DNA from: a virus
Lineage: Duplodnaviria; Heunggongvirae; Uroviricota; Caudoviricetes
Direction: 5' to 3' (one strand)
Length of the DNA: 64,000 nucleotides
Virus record (IMG/VR): IMGVR_UViG_2595698869_000001
Coordinates: 43,214 to 107,213 of that record
This document shows, in pieces, positions 1 to 62,597 of the stretch. Positions within the stretch are counted from its first letter, which is position 1, and the number at the start of each line of letters is the position of its first letter. The translations under genes were made by a program, and so were the position numbers. Below the pieces are notes generated by a model that saw only the letters and a program-made list of their open reading frames with translations, was not told the DNA's origin and did not search any database.

Positions 1-2848
1 CCTGACGTCGGGCGACATCGGCACGGTCATCGTCACCGCGCCCGAGGCGACCACCCAGGTCATCCCGCCGGTCGAGACCAGCGGCGACATCGGCACCATC
101 ACCGTCGTGACGGTGACGGGCGAGGCGTCGTGGAACAACAACGTCTCGGCCTCGGGCGACATCGGCACGATCATCGTTACCGTGCCCGACGTCGTGGCCG
201 TGGGCGACGATCTGGCCGAAGGGCTGATCGGCACGATCACGGTGATCGCGCCCGAGGGCGTGGCGCTCCAGGACGCCAATGTCGCGGCCGACATCGGCAC
301 CATCTCGGTCTATCCGATCGAAGGCGGTCAACCCGGCGACGCGGTCGGCGACATCCCCTATATCCAGGTGGTCACGCCGGGCGCGACGGTCAACGCCTCG
401 TCGGGCGACGACATCTCGCTCTACGCCGACATCGGCACGATCTACGTCCTCCAGGTCTACGGCCAGGGCTTCTGGATTTCCGAGGACAACTACGTCCACG
501 CCCTGCCCGATCCGCTGATCGTCACCACCACCGCGCCGGAAGGCTCGGCGCGCGGCGACGTCCATATCGTCCAGCCGCTGCCGACCATCGTCGTCACCGC
601 GCCGGTCCCGGTCGCGGCGGGTAACGCCCTGGCCGACGCCTATACGGGCGACTTCATCATCCTGGTCGCCGCGCCGGTTCCGCAAACGGAACTGAACGCG
701 AACGTCAACGTCTCGATGCCGCCGCCGATCGTCATCAACGGCAATGACGCGGAAGCCTCGCTTGACCTGAGCGTGCCGTTCAGCGACACGGCGGTGTTCG
801 TTACCGGCCCTGAGGCTCTGGGCCTGGGCTTCCACGGCGGCGAGATGGGACCGCCGATCGTGGTCACCCCGCCGCAGGGCGGCCCGGAGATTTCGGTCGA
901 AATCTTCGTCGATCCCGGCACGATCCTGGTGGAGGCCCCGCGCTTCCACTATATCCCCCCGATCACGGTGTTCCCGCCCGAAGGCGTGGCCCTCGACGCC
1001 AAGTCGGCCGAGGCTTCCGGTGATTTGGGGACCATCACCATCGGGGTCCCGACCGGCGGCTACCAAGCCAACGTCGCCATCAACCTGCCGCTGCCGACGA
1101 TCTTCGTCAACGTCCCGCAGGTCGTGGTCTTCGCCTCGGTCGCCGTGTCGGGCGACATCGGGACGATCACCCTCACCCCGCCGGCCGCCACCCTGACTGC
1201 CGGCGCGGACGCGGCCTTCACCCTGCCCGGCCCGATCGTTGTCACCGCGCCCGAGGCGACGGCGACGGCGGGCACGGCGGCGGCGACCTCTGGCGCCCTG
1301 ACCACGATCACCCTCACCCCGCCCGAGGGCTCGGTCTCGACCGGCGCGGCGGCGGCGACCTCGGGCGCGATCGGCACGATCCTCGTCTCGCCGTTCGACG
1401 GCAGCGTCTTCATCTCCTATCCGGGCAATGCGTCGGGCGCGATCGGCACGATCGTCGTCACGCCGCCGGCCGCGACCGTCTCCAACGGCCGCAATCTGTC
1501 GATCGCCCTGCCCGGCCCGATCATCGTCACCCCGCCTGCGGCCCAGCCTCAGGCTGGCGCGGCGCTCTCCGGCGACATCGGTACGATCGTCGTCACCAAC
1601 CCGGATGGTCAGGGCACCGGCGACACCGTGCTGGCCTCGGGCGCGATCGGCACGATCGTCGTCACCACCCCGGACGGCGCGGCAACCGGGCGGGGCCTGG
1701 GCACGGGCGCGATCGGCACGATCGTCGTCACCCCGCCGGCCGCGACCCTGACCACCGGCGCCAACAAGGCCGCCGCCCTTCCCGGCCCGATCATCGTCAC
1801 CCCGCCGGTTGGCGTGGGCCGCGTCCCCGCCGCCGGCACGGGCGATCTGGCGACGATCACCATCACCAGCACGCCCGAAGCCACCCTTTCGGTGGGCCAG
1901 GACATCGCTGGTCAGATCGGCACGATCAGCATCATCCCGCCCGAGGCGCTGCCGCAGGGCTCGGTGTTCGTCGACCCGACCGACGAAATGGTCGTGCAGG
2001 TCCTGCCCCCGCAGGCCATCCTCTTCCGCGAGGCCACGGTCATCGTCGGCTTCCCGACGGTGTATCTGGTCGCGCCCGAGGCGATCACCTATTCGCTGGC
2101 CGAATTCGCCTCGATCACCCTGCTGCCGCCGGACGCCTATGTCGACGTCCCGCTCCCGCTGGGCAAGAACCGCATCCGCTACCGCCGCAACAACACCGCT
2201 GGCCTTACTCCGACCAGCCTGCGTCCCAACGAGATCGCCCTGAACGAGACCGACGGCCTGCTGTTCACGCGCGACGGCGCCGGCGCGGTCAAGGCTACCC
2301 CGCTGGGCTTCCTGACCGGCGCGGGCGTGCCGCCGCCGATCACCGACAACGGCAAGGTCCTGTCGGGCGGCCTGTCCTGGGAGACGCCGAACACCCGCTA
2401 CCTCCTGCCGGTCCGCAACGCGCCGCCGGCTGGCGCGCGCATCGCCCTGGGCGAGGGCGTGGTGGGCGTTACGACCTTCACCCCGACGGTCGACGTCACC
2501 TACACGCGTCCGTTCTTCGTGGCCAAGACCATCGACATCCAGGCGCTGTCGGTGGATGTGGTGGGCGCCGCCGCCGCCACGGCCGAACTGGGCCTGATCG
2601 GCTGGTCCCTGTCGGGCGTGCCCGGCGCGACCCTGGCGCTCGGTACGGTCAGCACCGCGACCACCGGCGTCAAGACGGCGACCGGCACGGCCGTGACCTT
2701 GACGCCGGGCTGGTACGCCTCCACCTTCAAGGTCACCGGCGCGGCGGGGGCGTCGTTCCGGGCTCCGACCGCACCGACGGCGATCGCGCCGGACCTCACC
2801 GTGACGCCGGGCGCCCCGGCGCCGGTCATGGCAGACCTGGAGGCCTAA
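1..2848 (+). CDS. Large repetitive virion protein, 5'-truncated by window edge (head-filament/fibre candidate)
   Basis: Frame is open from position 2 (LTSGDIGTVIVTAPE...), upstream of the listed 107 start. It carries many SG(D/A)IGTI(T/V)VT(P/A)P repeats, then a short fibre-adaptor-like motif (LRPNEIALNETDGLLF) and a C-terminal beta-rich domain. Confidence 0.85.
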   Translation, partial: LTSGDIGTVIVTAPEATTQVIPPVETSGDIGTITVVTVTGEASWNNNVSASGDIGTIIVTVPDVVAVGDDLAEGLIGTITVIAPEGVALQDANVAADIGTISVYPIEGGQPGDAVGDIPYIQVVTPGATVNASSGDDISLYADIGTIYVLQVYGQGFWISEDNYVHALPDPLIVTTTAPEGSARGDVHIVQPLPTIVVTAPVPVAAGNALADAYTGDFIILVAAPVPQTELNANVNVSMPPPIVINGNDAEASLDLSVPFSDTAVFVTGPEALGLGFHGGEMGPPIVVTPPQGGPEISVEIFVDPGTILVEAPRFHYIPPITVFPPEGVALDAKSAEASGDLGTITIGVPTGGYQANVAINLPLPTIFVNVPQVVVFASVAVSGDIGTITLTPPAATLTAGADAAFTLPGPIVVTAPEATATAGTAAATSGALTTITLTPPEGSVSTGAAAATSGAIGTILVSPFDGSVFISYPGNASGAIGTIVVTPPAATVSNGRNLSIALPGPIIVTPPAAQPQAGAALSGDIGTIVVTNPDGQGTGDTVLASGAIGTIVVTTPDGAATGRGLGTGAIGTIVVTPPAATLTTGANKAAALPGPIIVTPPVGVGRVPAAGTGDLATITITSTPEATLSVGQDIAGQIGTISIIPPEALPQGSVFVDPTDEMVVQVLPPQAILFREATVIVGFPTVYLVAPEAITYSLAEFASITLLPPDAYVDVPLPLGKNRIRYRRNNTAGLTPTSLRPNEIALNETDGLLFTRDGAGAVKATPLGFLTGAGVPPPITDNGKVLSGGLSWETPNTRYLLPVRNAPPAGARIALGEGVVGVTTFTPTVDVTYTRPFFVAKTIDIQALSVDVVGAAAATAELGLIGWSLSGVPGATLALGTVSTATTGVKTATGTAVTLTPGWYASTFKVTGAAGASFRAPTAPTAIAPDLTVTPGAPAPVMADLEA

Positions 2849-2852
2849 GACC

Positions 2853-3521
2853 ATGCCGACCAACATCAACATGGCGCCGGACACCACCCTGCTGGCCGAT
2901 ATCCTCCTCAATGGCGGAGCCGGCGCGCCGGCGGACCTGGAGGATGGCGAACTCTATATCGACGAGGCGGGCCGCAAGCTCTATGTCGAGACCGTGGTCG
3001 GCGTCCAGGCCATTCCGCTCGACGTCGGCTATGTCCCGCGCCGCCCCAGCGGCACGCCGCTCGACTACGTGGTCAACAAGACCGAGACCGGGGCCGAGTG
3101 GGGGCCGCTGGAAGGCGGGGCCGGCGGCTCGCCGTTCGACGCGGCCGAGTTCCGCATCCCCGGCTTGGCTCCCACGGGCCTGGACACGGTCGTCATGCCC
3201 GGTGCCTCCGGAGGCCTGGGACTGTTCGAGATGCCGATCCAGGACGTGCTCCTGAGCATCCGCGTACACGCCTCTGCGGGCGCGGGGTCCGTGACCGTGG
3301 CGCTCTACCCGTTCAACGGCTCGCTCGGCTCGCTGATCTTCACCCAGACCCTGACTTTCGCCGCCCCCGAGTCCCAGGTCGTGCCCGTGTCCCAGCCCCT
3401 GACGCCGGGCATCTACGCCTGGGTCTGGACCGGGACCGATGGCTTGACCCTAGATGCGGTCAAGGGCTCGCTCCCGTGGGCGACGCGCGAGCAAACCCAT
3501 CCCGTGGCGATGAAGTTCTAA
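2853..3521 (+). CDS. Virion fibre-associated protein, paralogue of flanking genes
   Basis: 222 aa, typical codon bias, motif DLEDGELYIDEAGRKLY resembling the adaptor motif in the neighbours. Confidence 0.8.
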   Translation: MPTNINMAPDTTLLADILLNGGAGAPADLEDGELYIDEAGRKLYVETVVGVQAIPLDVGYVPRRPSGTPLDYVVNKTETGAEWGPLEGGAGGSPFDAAEFRIPGLAPTGLDTVVMPGASGGLGLFEMPIQDVLLSIRVHASAGAGSVTVALYPFNGSLGSLIFTQTLTFAAPESQVVPVSQPLTPGIYAWVWTGTDGLTLDAVKGSLPWATREQTHPVAMKF

Positions 3522-3523
3522 CG

Positions 3524-4300
3524 ATGGCGATCCAGAACCCCCATTCCACCACGCCCGGCACCATGCCGCACCTGACGCCCGGCGAGATCGGCGTCAACAA
3601 GGCCGACGACATCCTCTGGTTCCGCTCGCAGGGGCGCCGCGTGCCGATCATCCTGAGCGATCTTGACCGCGCCCCGCCGGCGGACGGCTATGTCGGCGCT
3701 CCCCTGACTCTGGTCGACGGCGCGCCGGCCTGGAATGTCAAGCTCTTGCCGTCCTCGATCGTCTCCGGCGCGGTCAAGGTCGATCTCCCGCCCGCCGCCG
3801 GCCTGCACGCCGTGCCGAGCGTCCTGCTCCAGGGCCTGGGGGCCGATCGCGTCCTGGCGACCAATGATCTGGACCTCACCCCCTTCTATGTCCGCTCCGA
3901 CTCCATCACCCTGACCCATCTGGCCTTCAGCGTGCGCTCGGCCGGCGCGCCGGCCATGCGCGTGGGGATCGTCGACAGCTTCGGCGTCGTCCAGGCCGAC
4001 ATCCTGGTCGCCGCGCCGGTCGTGGGCGCCAATGTCGTGGCCCTCTCGCCGGTCCTGACCCTCCAGCGCGGCGTCTACCGCACCATCCTGGCGACGACCG
4101 GGGCGGTGACGGTGGGGATCGCCACCGGCGCGCGCATGGAACAGGGCTGGGACATCATCGCCGACGCGCCGTCGTTTATCCGGGGCTACAGCGGTAGCAA
4201 GAACACTGGCGGCGGCATCGGGAGCCTGCCAGCGCTCACCCCGCGCCGCGACCCCGCGCCGGGCCAGGATCACGCCGTCCTCCTGCGCTGGACGGCGTGA
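3524..4300 (+). CDS. Virion fibre-associated protein, paralogue of upstream genes
   Basis: ATG at 3524, 2 nt after the previous stop (MAIQNPH...), in the 3098..4300 frame. Motif LTPGEIGVNKADDILWF; C-terminal domain resembles that of the 1..2848 protein. Confidence 0.8.
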   Translation: MAIQNPHSTTPGTMPHLTPGEIGVNKADDILWFRSQGRRVPIILSDLDRAPPADGYVGAPLTLVDGAPAWNVKLLPSSIVSGAVKVDLPPAAGLHAVPSVLLQGLGADRVLATNDLDLTPFYVRSDSITLTHLAFSVRSAGAPAMRVGIVDSFGVVQADILVAAPVVGANVVALSPVLTLQRGVYRTILATTGAVTVGIATGARMEQGWDIIADAPSFIRGYSGSKNTGGGIGSLPALTPRRDPAPGQDHAVLLRWTA

Positions 4301-4309
4301 ATCTTGACA
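4296..4309 (+). promoter_or_regulatory. Phage promoter motif (GT)CGTGAATCTTGACA, first of 11 copies in the window
   Basis: Copies at 4296, 10026, 11673, 13692, 22586, 28723, 35283 (+) and 43854, 44811, 50924, 58608 (-), each upstream of and oriented towards a gene start. Confidence 0.8.
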
Positions 4310-4362
4310 CTCGGTCGAAATGCGGTTAACCTGCGCGCTCATCTGGAGTTTCGAGCGCCATC

Positions 4363-4629
4363 ATGGCCGAGCTTGTCCGCATCTATCACCCCGAGACGAA
4401 CGAGCCGTTCGACGTGATCCCGTCGACCGCCGAACGTCTGCGCCTGGGTCAAGGTCTGGACGGTCTGGTGTGGCTCTCGCAGCCCTTCTCCCGCGCCGCT
4501 GCCGAAGAGCCGGCGCCGGAAGCCCCCAAGGGGCGAGGTCGTAAGCGCGTCGCCGCGCCCGTCTCGGACGAAGCCGAAGACGATGGCTGGCGTGACGCGC
4601 CGACCGAGGACGCTTCCGAAGCCGCGTAA
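4363..4629 (+). CDS. Hypothetical protein (88 aa)
   Basis: GGAG RBS upstream, phage-like codon usage, downstream of a promoter motif. Confidence 0.75.
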   Translation: MAELVRIYHPETNEPFDVIPSTAERLRLGQGLDGLVWLSQPFSRAAAEEPAPEAPKGRGRKRVAAPVSDEAEDDGWRDAPTEDASEAA

Positions 4630-4673
4630 GGCGCTTCCCCGTCCACTCTGCTGAAATTCGGTCTCAGTCCCAT

Positions 4674-4749
4674 GTCGGTCTAGCTCATGGGGTAGAGCGG
4701 CGGTCTCCAAAACCGCGCGTGGCAGGTTCGAGTCCTGCGACCGGCGCCA
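4674..4749 (+). tRNA. tRNA-Trp(CCA)
   Basis: Cloverleaf, GCGGT-CTCCAAA-ACCGC anticodon arm, GGTTCGAGTCC T arm, encoded CCA. Confidence 0.92.
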
Positions 4750-4754
4750 TTTCC

Positions 4755-4829
4755 GCGTCCATCGTATATGGGTTATTGCTTCGCGTTGCCAACGCGACGA
4801 ACCGGGTTCGAGTCCCGGTGGACGCTCCA
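4755..4829 (+). tRNA. tRNA-Gly(GCC)
   Basis: Cloverleaf, TCGCG-TTGCCAA-CGCGA, U73, CCA. Confidence 0.92.
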
Positions 4830-4835
4830 ATCCAG

Positions 4836-4909
4836 GCGGATATAGCTCAAAGGGAGAGCTACTGCCTTCCAAGCAGAAGATGCGGGTTCGAGCCCCGCTA
4901 TCCGCTCCA
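4836..4909 (+). tRNA. tRNA-Gly(TCC)
   Basis: Cloverleaf, loop CTTCCAA, GCGGATA/TATCCGC acceptor stem, CCA. Confidence 0.92.
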
Positions 4910-4968
4910 AAATTTTCTTCCACGACAAGCTTGACAGCCGCCGAGATTTGTGAGAGCCTTCAACCATT

Positions 4969-5031
4969 ATGACGCACCTCCTGACCCGTTACGAACGCGA
5001 GGCCACCGGCCTCGATACCACCACCGCCTAA
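4969..5031 (+). CDS. Putative leaderless 20-aa leader peptide (MTHLLTRYEREATGLDTTTA) overlapping alternative hairpins
   Basis: ATG just downstream of TTGACA at 4931. CGAGGCC/GGCCTCG/CGAGGCC-TTTT segments allow two exclusive hairpins. Confidence 0.4.
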   Translation: MTHLLTRYEREATGLDTTTA

Positions 5032-40940: not shown

Positions 40941-43748
40941 TTACCCCTCACATGCCAAGCAGTCGGACGAGGCCGTCGGGTTGAGGGCCAGCATCGCGGC
41001 CTCCTCGGCGGAGCCCTCGGTCACGGGCTCCTCGGCGATCTCGATCTTCTTGCGCTCGACCTTGGCGTTGGTGTTCTCGGCCCGCTTGGGGGTCGACGAG
41101 CGCAGGTAGTAGAAGGACTTGACGCCGGCGCCCTCGCCCCAGCCCAGGAAGTGGAGTTCCGAGAGGTACTCGGCGTCCGCGTCGTGGGGCACGAAGACGT
41201 TCAGGGACTGGCCCTGGCAGATCGACTTGGAGCGGTCGACCGCGAGGGTCACGACCCAGCGCTGGTCCATTTCGCGGGCGGTCCGGTAGACCTTCAGGAG
41301 ATGCAGGCGCTCGGCTTCCGGCATGGTCACGCCGTGCTCGGCCAGGAACTCGGGCGTGAAGTGCTGGATCGAGCCCTCGGCCGCGACGATCGACTTCCAG
41401 ACCGCCTCGGTGTCCAGGCCCAGTTCGCCCAGGCGCTTCTTCAGCCAGCGGTTCTTGACGGCGAACGAGCCCGACAGGGTCTTGTGCAGGAAGGTGTTGG
41501 CCGGGATCGGCTCGATCGACGGCGAGGTGCCCCCGCAGAGGATCGAGGACGAGGCGTTGGGCGCCACGGCCAGCTTGTGGGCGAACCGCTCGCCCGTGCC
41601 TTCCATGTCCGGCGCCTCGCCGCGCTCCTTGCCCAGCAGCAGGGAAGCCGCGTCGGCCTGCTTGCGCATGTGGACGAACAGTTCCAGGTTCAGCCGGCGG
41701 GCGGCGTGACTCTCGAACGGGATGTCCAGCATCTGGAGCAGCGAGTGGAAGCCGAGCAGGCCCAGGCCCACCGACCGTTCGCGCACGGCGCTGTAGGCGG
41801 CGCGGTGCATCTCGTCCGGCGCGTTGTCGATGAACACCTGGAGGCAGTTGTCCAGCATGCGCAGCAGGTCTTCGATGAAGGTCGGGTGATCCCGCCACTC
41901 CGGCCACTTCTCGGCGTTGACGCTGGAGAGGCAGCAGACGGCGGTCCGCATCTTGCCGAAGATGTCGCGGCCCGAGCCCAGCATGATCTCCGAGCAGTTG
42001 CCCGTCAGATAGCCGTTGAAGACCAGACGGTTGCGCAGGGGCTCGGTCGCGCAGAAGACGTCGGCCTTGTGCGCGAGCGGGTGGACGTCGGCGACCGTCG
42101 CCGCCAGGATCGAGGCCACCCCGATCGCGGCATCGCGCGGCTCGATCGCGTGGGCCAGGACGATGCCGCGATCCGACAGGTAGGCCACGTCCCACTCGGC
42201 GAGCGAGAAGGCGCTGACCGTGTCGGTCAGGCGGATGCGCGGGTGAAGGCCGGACTCGATGGCCATGAGGCGCATCTGGCGGATCAGGTCGACGTCGGTC
42301 GAGCCGACGGTCAGCCAGCGCGCGCCGTCGATCTCGACCCACTCGCCGGCCGCGTCCAGCGCGCCGGCCAGCCACGTCAGGCGGCGTTCGACAGTCCAGG
42401 CGAATGGCACCACGCCGGGATTGATCACCTGCGGGTCAAAGCGCAGGGTCGTGCCGTGCTCGTCGCCTTCCAGGTTGGTCGACAGCGTCGACAGGCGCTT
42501 GAGCACCTCGCCGGGCAGGGTCTCGGGCACGAAGGCCGACAGCCGGTTCTTGTCGTCGAAGCCAGCGAAGGTCGTCCAGCCGGCGGCATAGGCCTGCTCG
42601 ATCGGCGGCGTCGCGTCGGCCAGTCCCTCGATCACCGGCGCCTGGGCCTTGGCCAGCACGGTCCCGAGCTTCAGTTCGCCGGCCCGAACCTCCACGCCGT
42701 CCTTGGTGTAGAACTTGTGGTAGGGGGTGCAGTCGAGATAGTCGCCGTCCTCGAACCAGACGCGCACCAGCGAGGCCTTCTCGTCGGTGGGGTTGGTCTG
42801 CTGGATCAGGACGCGGCTGAATTCCTCGCCGTTCCAGACGTCGTGGTATTCGCCCTTCAGGGCCTCGATCGGCAGGTGGCCGTTGCGGGTCAGGATTTCG
42901 GTCTCGCCGGTCACGCAGAGGTTCGACTGGCGGACCTTGAGGCCGAGCTTCTTCTGCGCCTCGGGGAAGTGGCGGTTGGAGGTGTCGATGAAGTGGATGT
43001 AGGGCTCGCCCGTCTGCATCCGCGTCTCGATCAGCAGGCGCCACAGTTCGCGCGCCCGCTCGACGCGGATCACCTCGCCGGTCTTGGGCGAACGCAGGGC
43101 GAACTCGGTGTCGTCGCGCACCGCGATCATGAACTCGTCGGTGACGTTGACGGCGTTGTGCAGATTGGTGATCTTGCGGTTCTGGTCGCCGCCGGTCGGC
43201 TTGCGGGCCGTGATGAACTCGCGGATTTCCGGGTGGCTGATGTCCAGATAGACGGCGTTGGAGCCCCGGCGCGTGCCGCCTTGGCTGACGGCGAGAATCA
43301 GGCGATCGTCCACCGCCATGAACGGGATCACGCCGGTCGACTGCGAACCCTTCGAGGTCTTCTCGCCCAGGCCGCGCAGGGCGCCGTAGTAGGAGCCGAT
43401 GCCGCCGCCCATCGACGAGAGCCAGATAACCTCGTCATAGTGCTCGGAGATCGACTCGCGGCTGTCCTCGATCGCGGTGAGGAAGCAGGAGATCGGCAGG
43501 CCGCGCGCGGACCCGCCGTTCGACAGCAGGGGCGTGGCGAACATGAACCAGAGGTTCGAGACATAGTCGTAGAGCCGCTGGCCGTGCTCGGCGTCATCCG
43601 CGAAGGCCGCACTCGCGCGCGCGAAGGCCTCCTGGGGCGAGCTTTCCCCAGGCAGCAGATAGCGTTCACGGAGGGTCTGAAGGGTGAAGTCGTCGAGCAG
43701 GGCGTCGCGGGTGAGATCGATCTTGATTTCGGAGGGTGCGACAGCCAT
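40941..43748 (-). CDS. nrdA: Class I ribonucleotide reductase alpha subunit, intein-containing
   Basis: ATPLLSNGG, PISCFL, SNL-[intein]-CSEI, APNASSS, CQGQSLN, YYLRS, C-terminal CLACEG; start placed at ATG 43748. Confidence 0.93.
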   Translation of the reverse strand: MAVAPSEIKIDLTRDALLDDFTLQTLRERYLLPGESSPQEAFARASAAFADDAEHGQRLYDYVSNLWFMFATPLLSNGGSARGLPISCFLTAIEDSRESISEHYDEVIWLSSMGGGIGSYYGALRGLGEKTSKGSQSTGVIPFMAVDDRLILAVSQGGTRRGSNAVYLDISHPEIREFITARKPTGGDQNRKITNLHNAVNVTDEFMIAVRDDTEFALRSPKTGEVIRVERARELWRLLIETRMQTGEPYIHFIDTSNRHFPEAQKKLGLKVRQSNLCVTGETEILTRNGHLPIEALKGEYHDVWNGEEFSRVLIQQTNPTDEKASLVRVWFEDGDYLDCTPYHKFYTKDGVEVRAGELKLGTVLAKAQAPVIEGLADATPPIEQAYAAGWTTFAGFDDKNRLSAFVPETLPGEVLKRLSTLSTNLEGDEHGTTLRFDPQVINPGVVPFAWTVERRLTWLAGALDAAGEWVEIDGARWLTVGSTDVDLIRQMRLMAIESGLHPRIRLTDTVSAFSLAEWDVAYLSDRGIVLAHAIEPRDAAIGVASILAATVADVHPLAHKADVFCATEPLRNRLVFNGYLTGNCSEIMLGSGRDIFGKMRTAVCCLSSVNAEKWPEWRDHPTFIEDLLRMLDNCLQVFIDNAPDEMHRAAYSAVRERSVGLGLLGFHSLLQMLDIPFESHAARRLNLELFVHMRKQADAASLLLGKERGEAPDMEGTGERFAHKLAVAPNASSSILCGGTSPSIEPIPANTFLHKTLSGSFAVKNRWLKKRLGELGLDTEAVWKSIVAAEGSIQHFTPEFLAEHGVTMPEAERLHLLKVYRTAREMDQRWVVTLAVDRSKSICQGQSLNVFVPHDADAEYLSELHFLGWGEGAGVKSFYYLRSSTPKRAENTNAKVERKKIEIAEEPVTEGSAEEAAMLALNPTASSDCLACEG
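41997..42917 (-). mobile_element. Intein (307 aa) with degenerate LAGLIDADG region
   Basis: Begins CVTGETEILT, contains CTPYHKF (block B), ends VFCATEP..N.L..NG.LTGN before Cys; splits the NL/CSE active-site loop. Confidence 0.9.
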
Positions 43749-57903: not shown

Positions 57904-58594
57904 AGAGAAGCTCCGGTTTGGCGCTGACCGGCTTGGACCAATCCCAGACGTACCAAGCGTAGGCGAAGCGCGGGGCGCCCTTGGTGCCGGCGATCCAGCG
58001 GGGGCGGTGACGAAGGGTGACCTTCGCGGTGAAAGCGGGGTGATCGAACAGGTCCGCGCGCGAGCGCGCCGCGTCCCATTCGTGGCGGCAGAGGAAGGCC
58101 ACGAGGCCCTGGTCGGCCTCCATCAGGTCCAGCGCGTGGCGCGCGGCGCGCTCGGCGTCCTTGCCGTAGGGCGGGTTGGTGATGATCGCGTCCGGACGCG
58201 GCGGCAACGGCGTGCTCTTGCGCTCCTCGCCCTTCTCGTCGACAACCGTCTCGGGCCGGACCTTCAGCGCGCCCAGGCGGTCGAGGTCGGCCGGCGTCAG
58301 CTTGAAGAAGTCCTCGACCGCGTCGACCTCGAAGCCCTCGTAGCGGTGGATGTCCGTGGCGAGGACTTCCTGCACGAAGGGCTTGAGCGGCGTGGCGATG
58401 GCGCCGTTGCCGGCGAAGGGCTCCCAGGCGAAGAACGGGGCGAAATCATCGCCCAGGGCCTCGATCAGGGCGTCGAAGGCCGGCCGAGGAGTCGGGTAAA
58501 AGTCCAGCGGGGTCCTGGCATATCCGGAGGCGCCCAGCATGGAGGGGTCTTTGCGACCAGCATCGGAGAGAGACATGGTCGTGAGGGATGTCAT
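57893..58594 (-). CDS. Amino-(N6-adenine/N4-cytosine) DNA methyltransferase-like protein
   Basis: DFYPTP, WEPFAGNG (SAM binding), IITNPPYG (catalytic). Confidence 0.82.
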   Translation of the reverse strand: MTSLTTMSLSDAGRKDPSMLGASGYARTPLDFYPTPRPAFDALIEALGDDFAPFFAWEPFAGNGAIATPLKPFVQEVLATDIHRYEGFEVDAVEDFFKLTPADLDRLGALKVRPETVVDEKGEERKSTPLPPRPDAIITNPPYGKDAERAARHALDLMEADQGLVAFLCRHEWDAARSRADLFDHPAFTAKVTLRHRPRWIAGTKGAPRFAYAWYVWDWSKPVSAKPELLYAG

Positions 58595-58659
58595 GGTTAA
58601 CGAAGGGTGTCAAGATTCACGACATTGACTGTCGTGACGCAGCACGTTAATCAGGAGGC

Positions 58660-59285
58660 AACGGGCCGTCCTTCTGCATTAGCCCCGCCGCCGCGCCTTC
58701 CAGGCGGCACGGGCCGGGACGGTGGTTGGTGACGAGCAGGCCGAGGCAGCGGCGGGCGAGTCGAAGGAGAACCCGGCGAGCGGCGGAAGGCGTCGTTGAC
58801 GCCCTCGGACTCGACAAGCACGTGGTGATGCCGGAAATCACCGCGATCGCGCGGACGTCTGGACGTTGCTAGGCGTAAGGCAGGCCTGCCGAGAAGTGGA
58901 AACGGCCGGGGCGGGCGGGACTTGATCTCGTCCGCCTTTCCGCCTAAGCTTCCCTCATTGCAGGCGCAGCACCGCCCTTCGCTAACGGCCCCGAGGGGTA
59001 CGCAAGGGCTAGAAGCCTTGCCTGGGACAGGACTGCCTCTGATCCAGGAACGCCCTGGGCCGCGTAGCGCCCATGACGCGAACGCCGGCCGAGAATGGGC
59101 GACTAGGCGTGACGGCGGCCAGAGGCCGCAGCGACATTCCAAGCTCGATAGAGCGATCGGCGGGCCGGGGCGAAAGCCCTGTTTCGAGAGCCAGGGCAAC
59201 CCGTCATAGGTCCTGGTCGGGCGACGAGGCAGCAAGTCCCGCGAACGGAGCCTCTGAGGTGGCGTCACCAAGATGCAGCAGACGC
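58660..59285 (+). ncRNA. Unassigned ~630-nt structured RNA candidate
   Basis: TTGACT(58625)-N15-GTTAATCA promoter, terminator 59286-59319, end-to-end helices (58674-79/59273-78; 58726-34/59263-71), many GNRA-capped hairpins, no ORF with phage codon bias. Confidence 0.6.
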
Positions 59286-59319
59286 AAAAAGGCCCCGATC
59301 GCGAGATCGGGGCCTTTTC
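59286..59319. terminator. Bidirectional terminator
   Basis: AAAAAGGCCCCGATC-GCGA-GATCGGGGCCTTTT. Confidence 0.85.
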
Positions 59320-59323
59320 ATGT

Positions 59324-59412
59324 TGGAGCTTCGGGAGGGACTCGAACCCTCATAGGTGTTCCCACCAGCAGAGATTTGCAATCCCGCGCCTAACCTCTCA
59401 GTCCACCGAAGC
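59324..59412 (-). tRNA. tRNA-Cys(GCA) with long variable arm
   Basis: GCTTCGG/CCGAAGC acceptor, loop TTGCAAA, GGTG-GGAA-CACC extra arm, U73, CCA. Confidence 0.85.
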
Positions 59413-59456
59413 ACAAAAGGACCTCGACGCCCGAAGGCCCGAGGTCCGATCCGTAA

Positions 59457-59589
59457 CCAGGGGAGGGCCGTAGCTGTCCCCTGACCCTGAACGACAGGTG
59501 GCGGGCTTGGTCGTCATCCCGTCAGGCTCGCGGCGCCGCTCGCCTGAACCGCCGATATGCCACGAGGGCAGTGATCCGCAGGTCCCCAC
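59457..59589 (-). ncRNA. 6S RNA-like rod with central bubble
   Basis: Self-complementary rod (GGGGA/TCCCC, CTGCCCT/GGGGACAG, GGCGG/CCGCC, TCAGGC/GCCTGA), small hairpin in the 3' bubble, flanked by terminator-like hairpins. Confidence 0.45.
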
Positions 59590-59596
59590 AAATAGC

Positions 59597-59635
59597 AAAA
59601 AGGCCACGATCCGCGAGGACCGTGGCCTTTTCGTT
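59597..59635. terminator. Bidirectional terminator
   Basis: AAAAAGGCCACG...CGTGGCCTTTT. Confidence 0.8.
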
Positions 59636-59639
59636 TTCC

Positions 59640-60510
59640 GATGGGCTGAGACTACACCCATCAGCAATCCCGCTTCGAGGATTATTCCCCAGGTGCGACC
59701 CCAGGTATTCCCTCGACGTCCACCAGACCCCTTGCGGTAGTCCAGTCCGAGATCATCGCCGCCGTTCTTGCGCACCCCGAAGGGATTGCGGGTCTGGCGT
59801 TTGACCCATCATGGCGAACTACTCGACAGTTCCTTCCCCGCTGGGCTTGCGACCCACTCACCGGCGCTAACCGGCTGACGAAGCTCTTCCTATCGACACC
59901 TCGCGGGCTTGCGACCCTTGAGATGACTCCGTTACCCGAAGGCCGGAGCATTTGGCGACTTACGTCCGCCACTGGACCAGTCTTTGCGTTTTTCATCGAA
60001 GCGGGGATTGAACCCGCGACCGACAGCTTAAGAGGCTGTTGCACTACCACTGTGCTATTCGCAAACCCACCAAGACGTGCTGGTCCAGTTGTTCCCAGAG
60101 CTTTTGACCCCGGAAATGCAACACGCCTCATATCTTTCGCCTTGCGGGCTACTCGACTGCTCTTCAGGACTCCGTCTCCCCCAACCTTTCGGCCAGGATG
60201 CCCAGCACCCCTCGAACTGAAGCAAAGCTCTTCACCGCGAAGTGTCGAACCCTGCAACCCAAACGGTTATCCGTACTCCCTAGACACGCTTGCACGGGAT
60301 AGTCCGCTTGCGACGGACTGGCGGTTAAAGCCTCGGAGTTACCCCGGCCCCGCCTTGTCTCCCACGGTCTTCAGGTCTATCCCCTTTTGCAAGAGGCGGC
60401 CAGCTTCCCAGCCCGGACCCGTCGGCTTCCTCTGTCCTCTTGCGAGGTCGGGCGGCCTATGGGAGACCGTCCCTGTCACCCCGTCGCCGGGGCTTTCGTC
60501 AGAAGCGACG
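59640..60510 (-). ncRNA. ~870-nt GOLLD-like large structured RNA
   Basis: TTGACG(60544-60539)-N15-GCTAGAAC promoter, at least seven GCAA/GAAA-capped hairpins on the minus strand, long-range helices, embedded tRNA body, terminator at 59597-59635. Confidence 0.65.
59994..60064 (-). tRNA. tRNA-Lys(CTT)-like body embedded in the large RNA, no CCA
   Basis: D arm GCAC-AGTGGTA-GTGC, ACAGC-CTCTTAA-GCTGT, GCGGG-TTCAATC-CCCGC; acceptor only 4 bp, continuing into a longer stem. Confidence 0.7.
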
Positions 60511-60631
60511 ATGACGTTCTAGCGACAGCCCACGTCGTCGTCAACGACTTTTTCCGTCTCGATGTCGAATTTTTTCGACAGTCGTGGATGACGACAGTGC
60601 TTGACATTCTCGTAAGCCCATGCTAGGTGTC

Positions 60632-61003
60632 GGAAATCGTTGTAATTCGGACAACGGAACTGGCGGCAAGACAGGGGTGCGAATCCCCTCGCCTCCACCA
60701 TCGACGCCCGGCGCTGGGAGTACGCGACTCCTGGGCAGGGAGTGTTACCCTGGCGGGCTGCGGCCCGAGCCAAAGGTAGCCGGGCGTCGTTGATGGGGGC
60801 GACTAGCTTTCGATTGGCGCTCGGGACTGAAAGACGCAACGGTGGGTGACCTCCACATCGGCTTGCCGGTGATCGGGTCAGGCAACAGTAAATGTCGCCG
60901 ACAATGACAACGACGTCGTGGCTTTCGCCTCGGCTCGTGAAGCCATCGCCGCCTAATAAGCGGTAGAGGAGCCCGCCGGGAGCTTGGCAACAGAATCCCG
61001 GCA
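60632..61003 (+). ncRNA. ssrA: Two-piece (circularly permuted) tmRNA
   Basis: Acceptor piece ends GGGGTGCGAATCCCCTCGCCTCCACCA (60700). Coding piece starts GGGGGCG (60795), giving a 7-bp stem with G3-U70. Tag frame 60897-60956 reads ADNDNDVVAFASAREAIAA-stop. Promoter TTGACA(60601)-N15-GCTAGG. Confidence 0.9.
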
Positions 61004-61137
61004 ACCCCCTTTCGCAGGCGGGAACACCAACAGGCGATCTGTCGGGCGACCGATTTCCGATCCGTGTTCCCGTCTTCGAAAGGTGGTCAGGCCTACCCTC
61101 TTGGTGTGCTATCCAAGGGTCTGGCCACTTTACAGAA

Positions 61138-61216
61138 CGCGGGGTAGAGGAGTCCGGTTGTCCTCGTCTGGCTCATAACCAGGAGATCGTGGGTTCAAAT
61201 CCCACTCCCGCTCCCA
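61138..61216 (+). tRNA. tRNA-fMet(CAT)
   Basis: Unpaired C1, CGCGGGG start, loop CTCATAA, T arm GGTTCAAATCC, CCA. Confidence 0.8.
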
Positions 61217-61495
61217 ATGCGAACGCCGGCTGTTGAGAACGACGGCGTGACAAGCTCGGAGAGAACGAGCACTCCAGTCCGGGGTATGAGGCCGGACTAG
61301 CGGACGCCGTAGCGATTGCAGGCGTGACACCCGGAGATAGCGGGACCGGCTTTCCGAGCCGCATGCTCGGCGCGTAAGACCGCAGGCCTCGGCCATCGGG
61401 CAGTGTCAGGGGATGAGGCTAGTCCTCGGCTAACCACCTAGCGGTGAAGCTAGGGCATGCGGTTCGGAAAGCCGGGTTCGCGGTTCGTCCGCTAC
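61217..61495 (+). ncRNA. Structured RNA with two C4-like modules and a 20-23 bp stem
   Basis: ACGCC...GGCGTGACA-stem-GGAGA module at 61223 and 61304; helix 61346-61365/61456-61475; helix 61298-61306/61486-61494. Confidence 0.5.
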
Positions 61496-61496
61496 G

Positions 61497-61575
61497 AGAT
61501 GGAGATGTCGCCGGTTCGAGTCCGGCAGGTCCCCCAAAAGGAGGCCTTAGCTCAGTCGGTAGAGCGCTCCTATCC
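61497..61575 (+). ncRNA. Circularly permuted tRNA mimic (YrlA/Y RNA-like topology)
   Basis: Order is stem, variable loop, T arm (GCCGG-TTCGAGT-CCGGC), closed acceptor hairpin, TA, D arm (GCTC-AGTCGGTA-GAGC), stem. Confidence 0.7.
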
Positions 61576-61582
61576 CACCTTT

Positions 61583-61667
61583 GGTACGGTGGCTCGACAG
61601 GTAAGGCATCGGCCTCATAAGCCGAGGGTTCGTCCCAATCCTGGTTCAAATCCAGGTCGTACCTCCA
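61583..61667 (+). tRNA. tRNA-Met/Ile2(CAT) with long variable region
   Basis: GGTACGG/TCGTACC acceptor, TCGGC-CTCATAA-GCCGA, T arm, T-CCA. Confidence 0.8.
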
Positions 61668-61771
61668 AATCGACGCTTGACCCCAGGCCGCAGGCTGCTA
61701 AGCTTCCCCGGTCGGGATCGTCCCGCGTCCTTTCCAAGGTCAAGCCCCCGGAGCTTCGCTTCGGGGGCTTT

Positions 61772-62125
61772 TCAGTTCTTGACCACCCGCAGGCGCCGGG
61801 CCTCGATGGCGCGCTCCTCCGCCGCCACGCGCGAGACGTCTTGCAGGTGCGCCTTGGCGATCAGGTCGGGCGCGCCCACGGCCCGGAAGGGCACCTTGAC
61901 GGAGAGGTCGACATAGCGCCGCAAGAGAGGCTCGAATTCCAGACCCCGCGCCTGGGCGATCCGCGACAATGCGCCGGCGACGATCGCCACGACCAGGACG
62001 TTGGTCGGGGTCTCCTTGGTCAGGGTCCAGATGCCCGGTATCGATTGTCCAGGATGGAGTTCCTGCCGCGACACGTCATCGGCGGCGGCGCGGAAGAGGT
62101 TCTCGTAAGGGACGTTTTCGAGCAT
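61772..62125 (-). CDS. Hypothetical protein (117 aa)
   Basis: Strong codon bias; a hairpin terminator at ~61742-61775 separates it from the RNA island. Confidence 0.7.
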   Translation of the reverse strand: MLENVPYENLFRAAADDVSRQELHPGQSIPGIWTLTKETPTNVLVVAIVAGALSRIAQARGLEFEPLLRRYVDLSVKVPFRAVGAPDLIAKAHLQDVSRVAAEERAIEARRLRVVKN

Positions 62126-62204
62126 GCGACAACGATAGCGATCTTTTGCCGCCTGTCTACCCTCTACTCTTGATAGTAGTAAAGCCCTGATTTCAACACA
62201 AGCG

Positions 62205-62597
62205 CTAAAGACGTCCGCCGTAATAGTCCCGCCACATCCCCTCCCAATAGTCGATGTGGTAGTCGGTGCAATCCGGGCAGAGCCGGCGATCCCTGTTGGG
62301 GTCCTCGCCCTTGCCGTCCCAATGGTAGCAGGTCATCGACGAGACCATGCCCAGGCGCCAGAAGGTCCCACATCGCTCGCAGCCGCCCAGGGCGATTTGC
62401 TGCATCTGCCGGTGACCGTTCCATTTCGCCAGCGGCCGGGACCAGAGGAGATCGACCACCGCGTGGCGGATGCTCCCGTACTGGGTGAGCCCGACTTGCA
62501 CGACCTTGCGCTTACCCGTCCGCCGGGACACACCGCCCATGAACCGGTAGGCGTCGGTGTAATAGATGCGCACCTTTGGGAGGCGGAGCTTCTTCAC
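62205..62597 (-). CDS. Cys-rich hypothetical protein (130 aa)
   Basis: GTG start overlapping the helicase stop; CERC and LCPDC..YH.DYW motifs. Confidence 0.7.
   Translation of the reverse strand: MKKLRLPKVRIYYTDAYRFMGGVSRRTGKRKVVQVGLTQYGSIRHAVVDLLWSRPLAKWNGHRQMQQIALGGCERCGTFWRLGMVSSMTCYHWDGKGEDPNRDRRLCPDCTDYHIDYWEGMWRDYYGGRL

Follow-up and report, generated by a model that had tools for sequence, protein, structure and literature searches.

A predicted structured RNA of about 650 nt carrying a widespread phage pseudoknot–hairpin module in the tRNA island of phiCbK-like Caulobacter phages

We analyzed a 64,000-nucleotide (nt) stretch of viral DNA (hereafter, the window; positions 43,214 to 107,213 of the IMG/VR record IMGVR_UViG_2595698869_000001, Caudoviricetes) around a large structured noncoding RNA (ncRNA) that an initial annotation had placed on the plus strand at 58660–59285. 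The target region was 99.6% identical to phage RBC57 and 95.7% identical to phiCbK, and the source of the window is a phiCbK-like Caulobacter phage. The target RNA lies in a protein-free island of about 3 kb, whose 5′ neighbours are a T5 A1-like gene and a DNA methylase gene, both on the minus strand. Comparative evidence indicated that it is very probably a genuine structured plus-strand ncRNA of about 650 nt. It is partly modular, and its best-conserved part belongs to a far wider family of small phage RNA motifs. The features of the island are as follows.

58625–58652, plus strand: promoter-like element read from the sequence, with TTGACT (58625–58630), a 16-nt spacer, and TTAATC (58647–58652)
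58651–59271, minus strand: open reading frame (ORF) of 206 amino acids (aa), gp128 in phiCbK; not a gene, as judged from a codon-position test, indels, and relatives
58660–59318, plus strand: predicted primary transcript of the structured ncRNA, about 659 nt including the terminator hairpin (consensus fold, compensatory pairs, and skew)
58662–58909, plus strand: predicted 5′ domain, closed by CGGGCC/GGCCGG (58662–58667 with 58904–58909)
58911–58935, plus strand: hairpin of 10 base pairs (bp), with the invariant CUUGA in its loop (three compensatory pairs; 94% of cells paired)
58942–59260, plus strand: predicted 3′ domain, closed by GCCU/AGGU (58942–58945 with 59257–59260)
59073–59129, plus strand: 57-nt pseudoknot-plus-hairpin module, the best-conserved part of the RNA (models R1 and R2; covariation)
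59262–59285, plus strand: 3′ hairpin GCGUC/GACGC, with the invariant CCAAGAU in its 14-nt loop (alignment of nine phages)
59291–59319, both strands: predicted bidirectional intrinsic terminator, GGCCCCGAUC, loop GCGA, GAUCGGGGCC (sequence and scan)
3′ of the target RNA, minus strand: tRNA-Cys
59643–60129, minus strand: GOLLD RNA (RF02032, 171 bits), probably reaching about 60510
59992–60065: tRNA-Lys embedded in GOLLD
After GOLLD: permuted transfer-messenger RNA (tmRNA), tRNA-Met, a 365-nt spacer, and a second tRNA-Met
61214–61271 and 61295–61345, plus strand: two further copies of the module, directly after tRNA-Met (R2, 35.9 and 29.5 bits)

To describe the fold, we aligned nine phage sequences (the window, phiCbK, Ccr10, Swift, Magneto, Rogue, BL10, RBC63, and BL57; approximately 30% divergence). 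RNAalifold predicted 134 pairs, 36 of which were compensatory. The consensus energy was −148.8 kcal/mol, compared with −96.5 ± 6.2 kcal/mol for 60 column-shuffled alignments (z = −8.4), and the minus-strand consensus was poorer than that of the plus strand (−123.7). The skew of the target (G over C and A over T on the plus strand) pointed to the same strand. These comparative data backed the view of the initial annotation that the locus encodes a large ornate ncRNA in the size class of ROOL and OLE, with a conserved plus-strand structure of approximately 630–660 nt.

The consensus model would divide the RNA into two multi-helix domains, each with a long-range closing helix, joined by the conserved hairpin at 58911–58935. 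The 5′ domain holds CUGCA/CGCGG (58674–58678 with 58850–58854) and about nine local helices, which RNAalifold supported with one to three compensatory pairs each (85–96% of cells paired). The 3′ domain contains the module, a GNRA hairpin at 59167–59180, and the GCCAGGGC/GUCCUGGU helix, and one of its closing pairs (columns 294/698) was GU in four sequences, CG in four, and GC in one. The 3′ hairpin showed no covariation for or against pairing because its stem and loop core are invariant in the nine phages. The CUUG of the joining hairpin is complementary to the CAAG of the 3′ hairpin loop, so that the two loops could make contact; with both loops invariant, the alignment cannot add to this complementarity. 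The heptamer GCCGAGA occurs three times in the RNA (58888–58897, 59088–59094, and 58740–58746; GCCGAGG at the first of these), each lying in a predicted loop and invariant or nearly so across the nine phages.

Several of the internal hairpins read earlier from the single sequence were upheld by covariation; for example, GGCGUC-GUU-GACGCC is replaced by GGCGAG-UUC-CUCGCC in relatives. The GNRA loops proposed for the plus strand also held, since GGGGC-GAAA-GCCC changes to GGGGC-GCGA-GCCU with the GNRA loop retained. By contrast, neither of the two pairings proposed between the 5′ and 3′ ends survived: CUGCAU/AUGCAG formed none of six pairs in the Poindextervirus phages, and UUGGUGACG/CGUCACCAA formed nine of nine pairs in this phage only, with three to five of nine in all others.

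Next, we examined the ends of the transcript. The initial annotation gave the RNA its own promoter and terminator. The terminator hairpin (59291–59314) has 10 GC-rich bp, with a U-run behind it on either strand, UUUUC on the plus and UUUUU on the minus; on the minus strand it serves tRNA-Cys as well. The terminator scan scored it on the minus strand, and the plus-strand reading comes from the sequence; the element was kept in the nine phages, with a covarying loop region. The predicted transcription start falls at approximately 58658–58662. Upstream of it, 58600–58637 was invariant in the nine aligned phages, in which the RNA body was only approximately 70% identical. A promoter scan with the E. 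coli consensus gave no score to 58625–58652. The consensus of Caulobacter sigma-73 is GCtANAWC, and phiCbK-type relatives carry GCTAGACA at the −10 position, which we take to fit it.

The 38-nt block at 58600–58637 lies between the methylase start and the RNA and was 100% identical in the nine phages. On its minus strand, GAATC-TTGACA stands right before the methylase ATG, so that a GANTC site abuts a −35 box. Variants of this block also occur in Bajun, Colossus, and L018 (described below).

We then focused on the module. Its pattern, N3-GA-ACGNC-N-N3'...A-GNCGU-GAC-N-[5 bp]-G(G/C)AGAG-[5 bp], comprises three helices, which the target copy forms on the plus strand as follows.

P0: C59079–G59088 and G59078–C59089, 2 bp in the target copy (2–3 bp across the family), followed by the GA linker
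P1: ACGCC (59082–59086) with GGCGU (59106–59110), complete in the target and followed by the GAC linker
P2: GCGGC (59115–59119) with GCCGC (59125–59129), loop CAGAG, complete in the target

The module is an H-type pseudoknot because P0 crosses P1, and the P1 loop varies in length from 8 to 30 nt. Model R1 scored the target module at 82.3 bits. Model R2, built from 41 copies of which none came from Dolichocephalovirinae, scored the target copy (59076–59130) at 29.4 bits (E = 2.9e-5). In the whole window, R2 gave exactly three matches at E < 0.1, namely 61217–61271, 61298–61345, and 59076–59130. A count of the motif pattern gave eight matches, compared with 0.75 expected. The motif that the initial annotation had seen to be common to the target and 61219–61252 is thus real and significant by pattern count and by model R2. 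Hints of a second internal module (approximately 58875–58925, in the Rogue and BL57 homologues) were weak (E = 0.3).

All three helices were borne out by sequence variation among copies. For P2, the 5 nt flanking GAGAGA were fully complementary in 59% of matches, compared with 5.5% after permutation (28 stems). At the fourth pair of P1, copies without C-G had another standard pair in 86 of 88 cases (U-A 56, A-U 23, G-C 5, and G-U 2). For P0, the nucleotides 5′ of GA paired with positions 2–4 of the P1 loop in 77, 74, and 62% of copies, compared with 40, 48, and 34% expected; in an independent alignment, the best two pairs were formed in 40 and 37 of 41 copies, each with six pair types. The target copy is one instance of a widespread phage pseudoknot–hairpin module. 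A reading of the module as a promoter was rejected, as its P1 loop varies in length, its stems covary, and no fixed −10/−35 lies upstream. Hammerhead and k-turn readings of the GA...GA flanks, made by eye, were also dropped (no stem II, no complementary C-stem, and no Rfam ribozyme match).

The large RNA and its module differ in range. All Dolichocephalovirinae genomes examined carried the large RNA at one position, flanked by the methylase gene and tRNA-Cys, and in searches of viral loci and with body patterns it was found in this subfamily only. An nhmmer search of 240 other viral loci with the family profile gave no match, and a second body-specific pattern retrieved known phages only. At least 119 viral matches to the pattern AGGCGCAGCAC...GGACTG were dismissed as chance because none resembled the large RNA by nhmmer.

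Within the subfamily, size and module number varied. The RNA is 630–720 nt long in the Shapirovirus, Poindextervirus, and BL57 groups, and Brevundimonas phage Bajun has a version of approximately 475 nt with two modules. Tandem arrays of 225–265-nt units, with a module at each unit end, were found in Colossus (three units), PW (four), and Kabachok (three). An uncultured Colossus-like phage, L018 (IMGVR_UViG_3300033068_001629), has eight modules ahead of tRNA-Cys, in an array of approximately 4 kb (1000–5030). In Colossus, PW, and L018, the last module ends 2–6 nt before tRNA-Cys on the same strand, and tmRNA and tRNA-Met genes follow on the strand of the array; in Kabachok, tRNA-Cys lies much further downstream. 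In phiCbK-type phages, tRNA-Cys is inverted together with GOLLD, and a separate terminator ends the RNA. Small ORFs are interleaved in the L018 array, and at least two of its modules stand before such ORFs (approximately 57 and 87 aa) that have Shine-Dalgarno sites; one element thus precedes protein and RNA genes in a single locus.

Two scans of IMG/VR with patterns that fixed only parts of the motif each found the module in at least 120 contigs, for at least 184 distinct copies combined, and metagenome contigs contained it as well. Overall, no fewer than 200 IMG/VR contigs carry the module, which outside the subfamily occurs on its own, often right before tRNAs or ORFs. Among 113 copies, eight lay 3–18 nt upstream of a tRNA and two just downstream of one, and at least 21 had a Shine-Dalgarno site and an ORF no more than 60 nt further on. 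The genes after the module were diverse and included those for portal, primase, DnaT-like, and tail fibre proteins and three DNA methyltransferases (three of the 20 proteins tested). No fixed promoter was found upstream of the module. In bacterial genomes, 55 pattern matches were discarded as chance, given that they lacked the P2 hairpin and scored 17–27 bits; R2 gave one match in 151 sampled Alphaproteobacteria genomes, at limited sensitivity.

A recurrent protein of 141–144 aa, without a Pfam or PHROG match, starts approximately 20 nt after the module in more than 10 contigs (including L388, L393, L416, L431–L434, L450, L454, L464, and L480). In the PL operon of the lambdoid E. coli phage mEp390 (L385), we observed two P2-type hairpins (2275–2310 and 2493–2522; UGACA, a 5-bp stem, and a GAAGAGA or GAAAGA loop), which R2 scored at 17.9 and 25.7 bits. 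Both resemble boxB, and one lies within an annotated hypothetical ORF of 81 aa.

To compare the RNA with known families, we ran a permissive cmscan of 58300–62300 against all 4,227 families of Rfam 15 (E ≤ 10). The target (58300–59400) matched neither GOLLD (RF02032), which the same scan found next to it, nor ROOL (RF03087); nor did it match RNase P RNA, group I or II introns, tmRNA, riboswitches, or known self-cleaving ribozymes. The earlier failure to see RNase P or intron signatures was thus borne out. The only matches in the target were a chance-level PhotoRC-I match on the minus strand (E = 0.44) and terminator-type matches. Rfam scans of 19 module-bearing loci, six related loci, and the window gave no family for the module or the large RNA. 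The suggestion of a new family gains from these results, as the scan did find the neighbouring GOLLD, tmRNA, and tRNAs, and we consider the family, which is absent from Rfam, likely to be undescribed. In the literature, we found no link between GOLLD or any large ncRNA and Caulobacter phages.

GOLLD is the closest counterpart in setting. Both RNAs exceed 600 nt, have an intricate fold, occur in phages within a tRNA island, and have no known function. They differ in that the target RNA is modular with a variable number of units; it lies 350 nt from GOLLD on the opposite strand, each with a separate promoter and terminator. GOLLD was present also in BL57 and, more weakly, in Brevundimonas phage Bajun (104 bits), and was not found in Rogue, BL10, RBC63, Colossus, or PW, so that Rogue-, BL10-, and Colossus-type phages keep the large RNA at a locus from which GOLLD is missing. 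The phiCbK-group GenBank records that we opened annotate the embedded tRNA at the GOLLD site and not GOLLD itself. ROOL is known chiefly from Lactobacillales and rumen samples. It shares with the target the size class (approximately 580–660 nt), occurrence in phages or prophages, and a frequent position near tRNA islands (10.1101/2024.12.08.627333), but its covariance model gave no match to the target.

The module invites comparison with smaller phage RNAs. C4, the antisense RNA of phages P1 and P7, is released by RNase P. In phage P1, the c4 locus reads ACGCCC-N11-GGGCGUGAU followed by a hairpin, like helix P1, the GAC linker, and P2 of the module, and both C4 and the module stand at the 5′ side of phage operons; in C4, however, there is no GA linker, P0 pseudoknot, or GGAGAGAC loop. 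The C4 model (RF01695) found phage P1 c4 at 68.8 bits as a control and gave no match in the window or in the 19 module-bearing loci (E ≤ 1 to 10); conversely, R1 and R2 did not match phage P1 c4. When the variable loop was compared with 300 nt on each side, the longest complements averaged 5.36 and 5.39 nt, equal to permuted controls. Membership of the module in C4 was rejected on these grounds (no model cross-match either way and no excess complementarity of the loop to its flanks). In the phage P1 sequence itself (L504, 1494–1520), ACGCCC just 5′ of the Rfam C4 match is complementary to GGGCGU inside C4; the resulting hairpin resembles helix P1 of the module and straddles the start of the Rfam match.

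The put sites of HK022 and the nut/boxB sites of lambda are short two-part structures in nascent RNA near the 5′ ends of phage operons. P2 of the module, a 5-bp stem with a purine-rich loop, resembles boxB by analogy only; the module differs in being a pseudoknot, in adjoining tRNAs, and in reaching eight copies per locus. Phage T4 species 1 and 2 RNAs (RNAC and RNAD), phage YrlA-like RNAs, and further spacer RNAs of phage tRNA clusters are stable structured RNAs that lie among phage tRNA genes and are co-processed with them. The target shows no sequence or model similarity to these, is far larger, and has a promoter and terminator of its own. A Ro60/Y-RNA reading was rejected: YrlA (RF02553) gave no match inside the target, and no TROVE domain was found in the 221.8-kb phage genome.

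Taken as a whole, these observations are best explained by a separately transcribed, structured ncRNA that derives from a leader and presents the module, an explanation to which we assign about an even chance of being correct. The RNA would descend from the structured leader of a phage stable-RNA operon that became autonomous. It would act as RNA and offer both the module and the repeated GCCGAGA loops to a factor that would also recognise the module on nascent phage transcripts; candidates are RNA polymerase with its elongation factors or an enzyme of RNA processing or decay. The outcome would be that production of the adjacent tRNAs and tmRNA is promoted, or that they are protected, during infection. 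Phages place the module before tRNAs and genes, which is why we favour a role in producing or protecting RNAs. That this RNA serves the neighbouring tRNAs and tmRNA by engaging a shared factor, as its anatomy and synteny suggest, is nonetheless a tentative proposal, less probable than the structural part.

Several points weigh against this explanation. The single-sequence fold was no better than that of shuffled sequences (z = −1.47 for the plus strand and +0.23 for the minus strand), although at 66% G+C such a fold is uninformative. The covariation of the large RNA comes from just three independent lineages, and its long-range closing helices have one or two compensatory pairs each. A role of the module in promoting read-through fits badly with the strong terminator that ends the target RNA, and the functional part of the explanation is drawn from position alone. 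The module may also already be among the unnamed candidates of a catalogue of 8,495 covarying RNAs of 29–151 nt from IMG/VR, many of them upstream of genes and none with an assigned function (Fremin et al. 2023, PMC10690425); the 650-nt RNA cannot be, because its length exceeds that size range.

A bolder version, which we consider doubtful, would make the module a new and very widespread class of phage RNA, either a self-cleaving ribozyme or an element that reprograms RNA polymerase or an RNase, punctuating untranslated RNA operons and gene leaders. The 650-nt RNA would then be a stand-alone, multi-domain derivative acting in trans, possibly as an RNA-only assembly like GOLLD.

Among the alternatives, the one that fares best, though still unlikely, is that the transcript is a precursor cut into small stable RNAs, including the 57-nt module, in the manner of a tRNA-array spacer or of phage P1 C4 processed by RNase P. 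Modules lie 2–18 nt from tRNA ends, from which tRNA processing would release RNAs of approximately 55 nt; related phages carry tandem units; and the phage P1 c4 region has its similar ACGCCC...GGGCGUGAU hairpin at a processed 5′ end. However, the module is enclosed by long-range helices that show compensatory changes and reach across both domains, which speaks for a single folded molecule in phiCbK-type phages. The chance-level complementarity of the variable loop to the flanking 300 nt leaves a C4-like antisense action unsupported, and the C4 and module models do not cross-match.

Somewhat less probable again is an architectural RNA like GOLLD or ROOL, which would self-assemble into an RNA-only particle serving the tRNA island, as a third class beside GOLLD. 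Its length of approximately 650 nt, ornate fold, phage origin, and tRNA-island position are those of ROOL and GOLLD (10.1101/2024.12.08.627333), and a true GOLLD lies 350 nt away. Rogue- and Colossus-type phages keep the RNA without GOLLD, so that a similar role could be filled, and the invariant loops CUUGA, CCAAGAU, and GCCGAGA could make contacts within or between molecules. Against these points, neither the GOLLD nor the ROOL model showed similarity at E ≤ 10, and no conserved palindromic loop of the kind expected for homotypic kissing was seen (the sole 10-nt palindrome, CGCGAUCGCG, is not conserved). Moreover, with sizes from 475 nt up to an array of 4 kb and a widely varying number of units, the RNA looks more like a modular string than like a fixed, symmetric building block.

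An equally improbable alternative treats the module as a cis-acting antitermination element like HK022 put or lambda nut/boxB, and the large RNA as a mere untranslated leader. The two-part design (a pseudoknot and a 5-bp hairpin with a purine-rich, boxB-like loop) would suit such an element, as would its place just upstream of tRNAs and of early and late genes (portal, primase, and methylases) and its recurrence every 220–800 nt in the long untranslated RNA operons of Colossus, PW, and L018; P2-like hairpins also occur in the PL operon of the lambdoid phage mEp390. Yet the module-bearing target RNA ends at a strong terminator, beyond which read-through would be antisense to tRNA-Cys and GOLLD. 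In 12 kb around the HK022 immunity region, neither the motif regular expression nor R1 and R2 found a match, and no fixed promoter precedes the module.

The last alternative, that the region is a gene for a gp128-type hypothetical protein and its RNA structure only a by-product of high G+C, is largely refuted by the present data and retains a very slight probability. It draws on the 206-aa minus-strand ORF at 58651–59271, on coding sequences (CDSs) annotated there in the GenBank records of phiCbK, Swift, Magneto, Ccr10, and Rogue, and on the single-sequence fold, which does not exceed shuffles. These CDSs differ in length and frame (191, 171, 197, and 138 aa), and none is annotated in BL10, RBC63, RBC57, or BL57. 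The initial annotation had held that purifying selection on this ORF would speak against the RNA; substitutions relative to Rogue were instead spread evenly over the codon positions (79/89/88), without bias. The region contains many frame-breaking indels, mostly of 1–2 nt, and in Rogue, BL10, and BL57 the longest ORF shrinks to 108–137 aa in other frames. The ORF has no Pfam match, its translation is rich in Arg and Pro, as a GC-rich noncoding frame would give, and the alignment fold lies 8 standard deviations beyond shuffles. The gp128-type "hypothetical protein" annotation of phiCbK-like genomes is corrected by this finding.

The separately transcribed, module-presenting ncRNA that we favour would be carried also by phiCbK, a classic and genetically tractable phage whose host, Caulobacter crescentus, is a model bacterium. 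GOLLD and ROOL are examples of large ornate phage RNAs, which are striking in structure but have no known function and can be studied in few tractable systems. In the present case, one 3-kb island unites several tRNAs and a permuted tmRNA with GOLLD and another, unrelated large structured RNA, each of which could be deleted singly, and a stranded RNA-seq time course of phiCbK infection exists (PMC10688885). The analysis also brings to light a compact pseudoknot motif that is widespread in uncultured phage contigs and absent from Rfam. That this motif stands immediately ahead of tRNAs and of varied early and late genes suggests a general step of phage RNA production that is still unexplored.

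Two other parts of the island drew our attention. Between tRNA-Cys and GOLLD (59415–59640, minus strand), where no ORF and no Rfam match were found, two hairpins resemble minus-strand terminators (59440–59419 and 59633–59596). The 365-nt spacer between the tRNA-Met genes (61214–61582, plus strand) is itself a structured RNA. It opens with the two further modules, right after the CCA end of tRNA-Met, and continues with a tRNA mimic in which the T-arm precedes the D-arm; the mimic gave a weak YrlA match (61502–61569, E = 0.0014). This layout is kept in Rogue, BL57, Colossus, PW, and L018.

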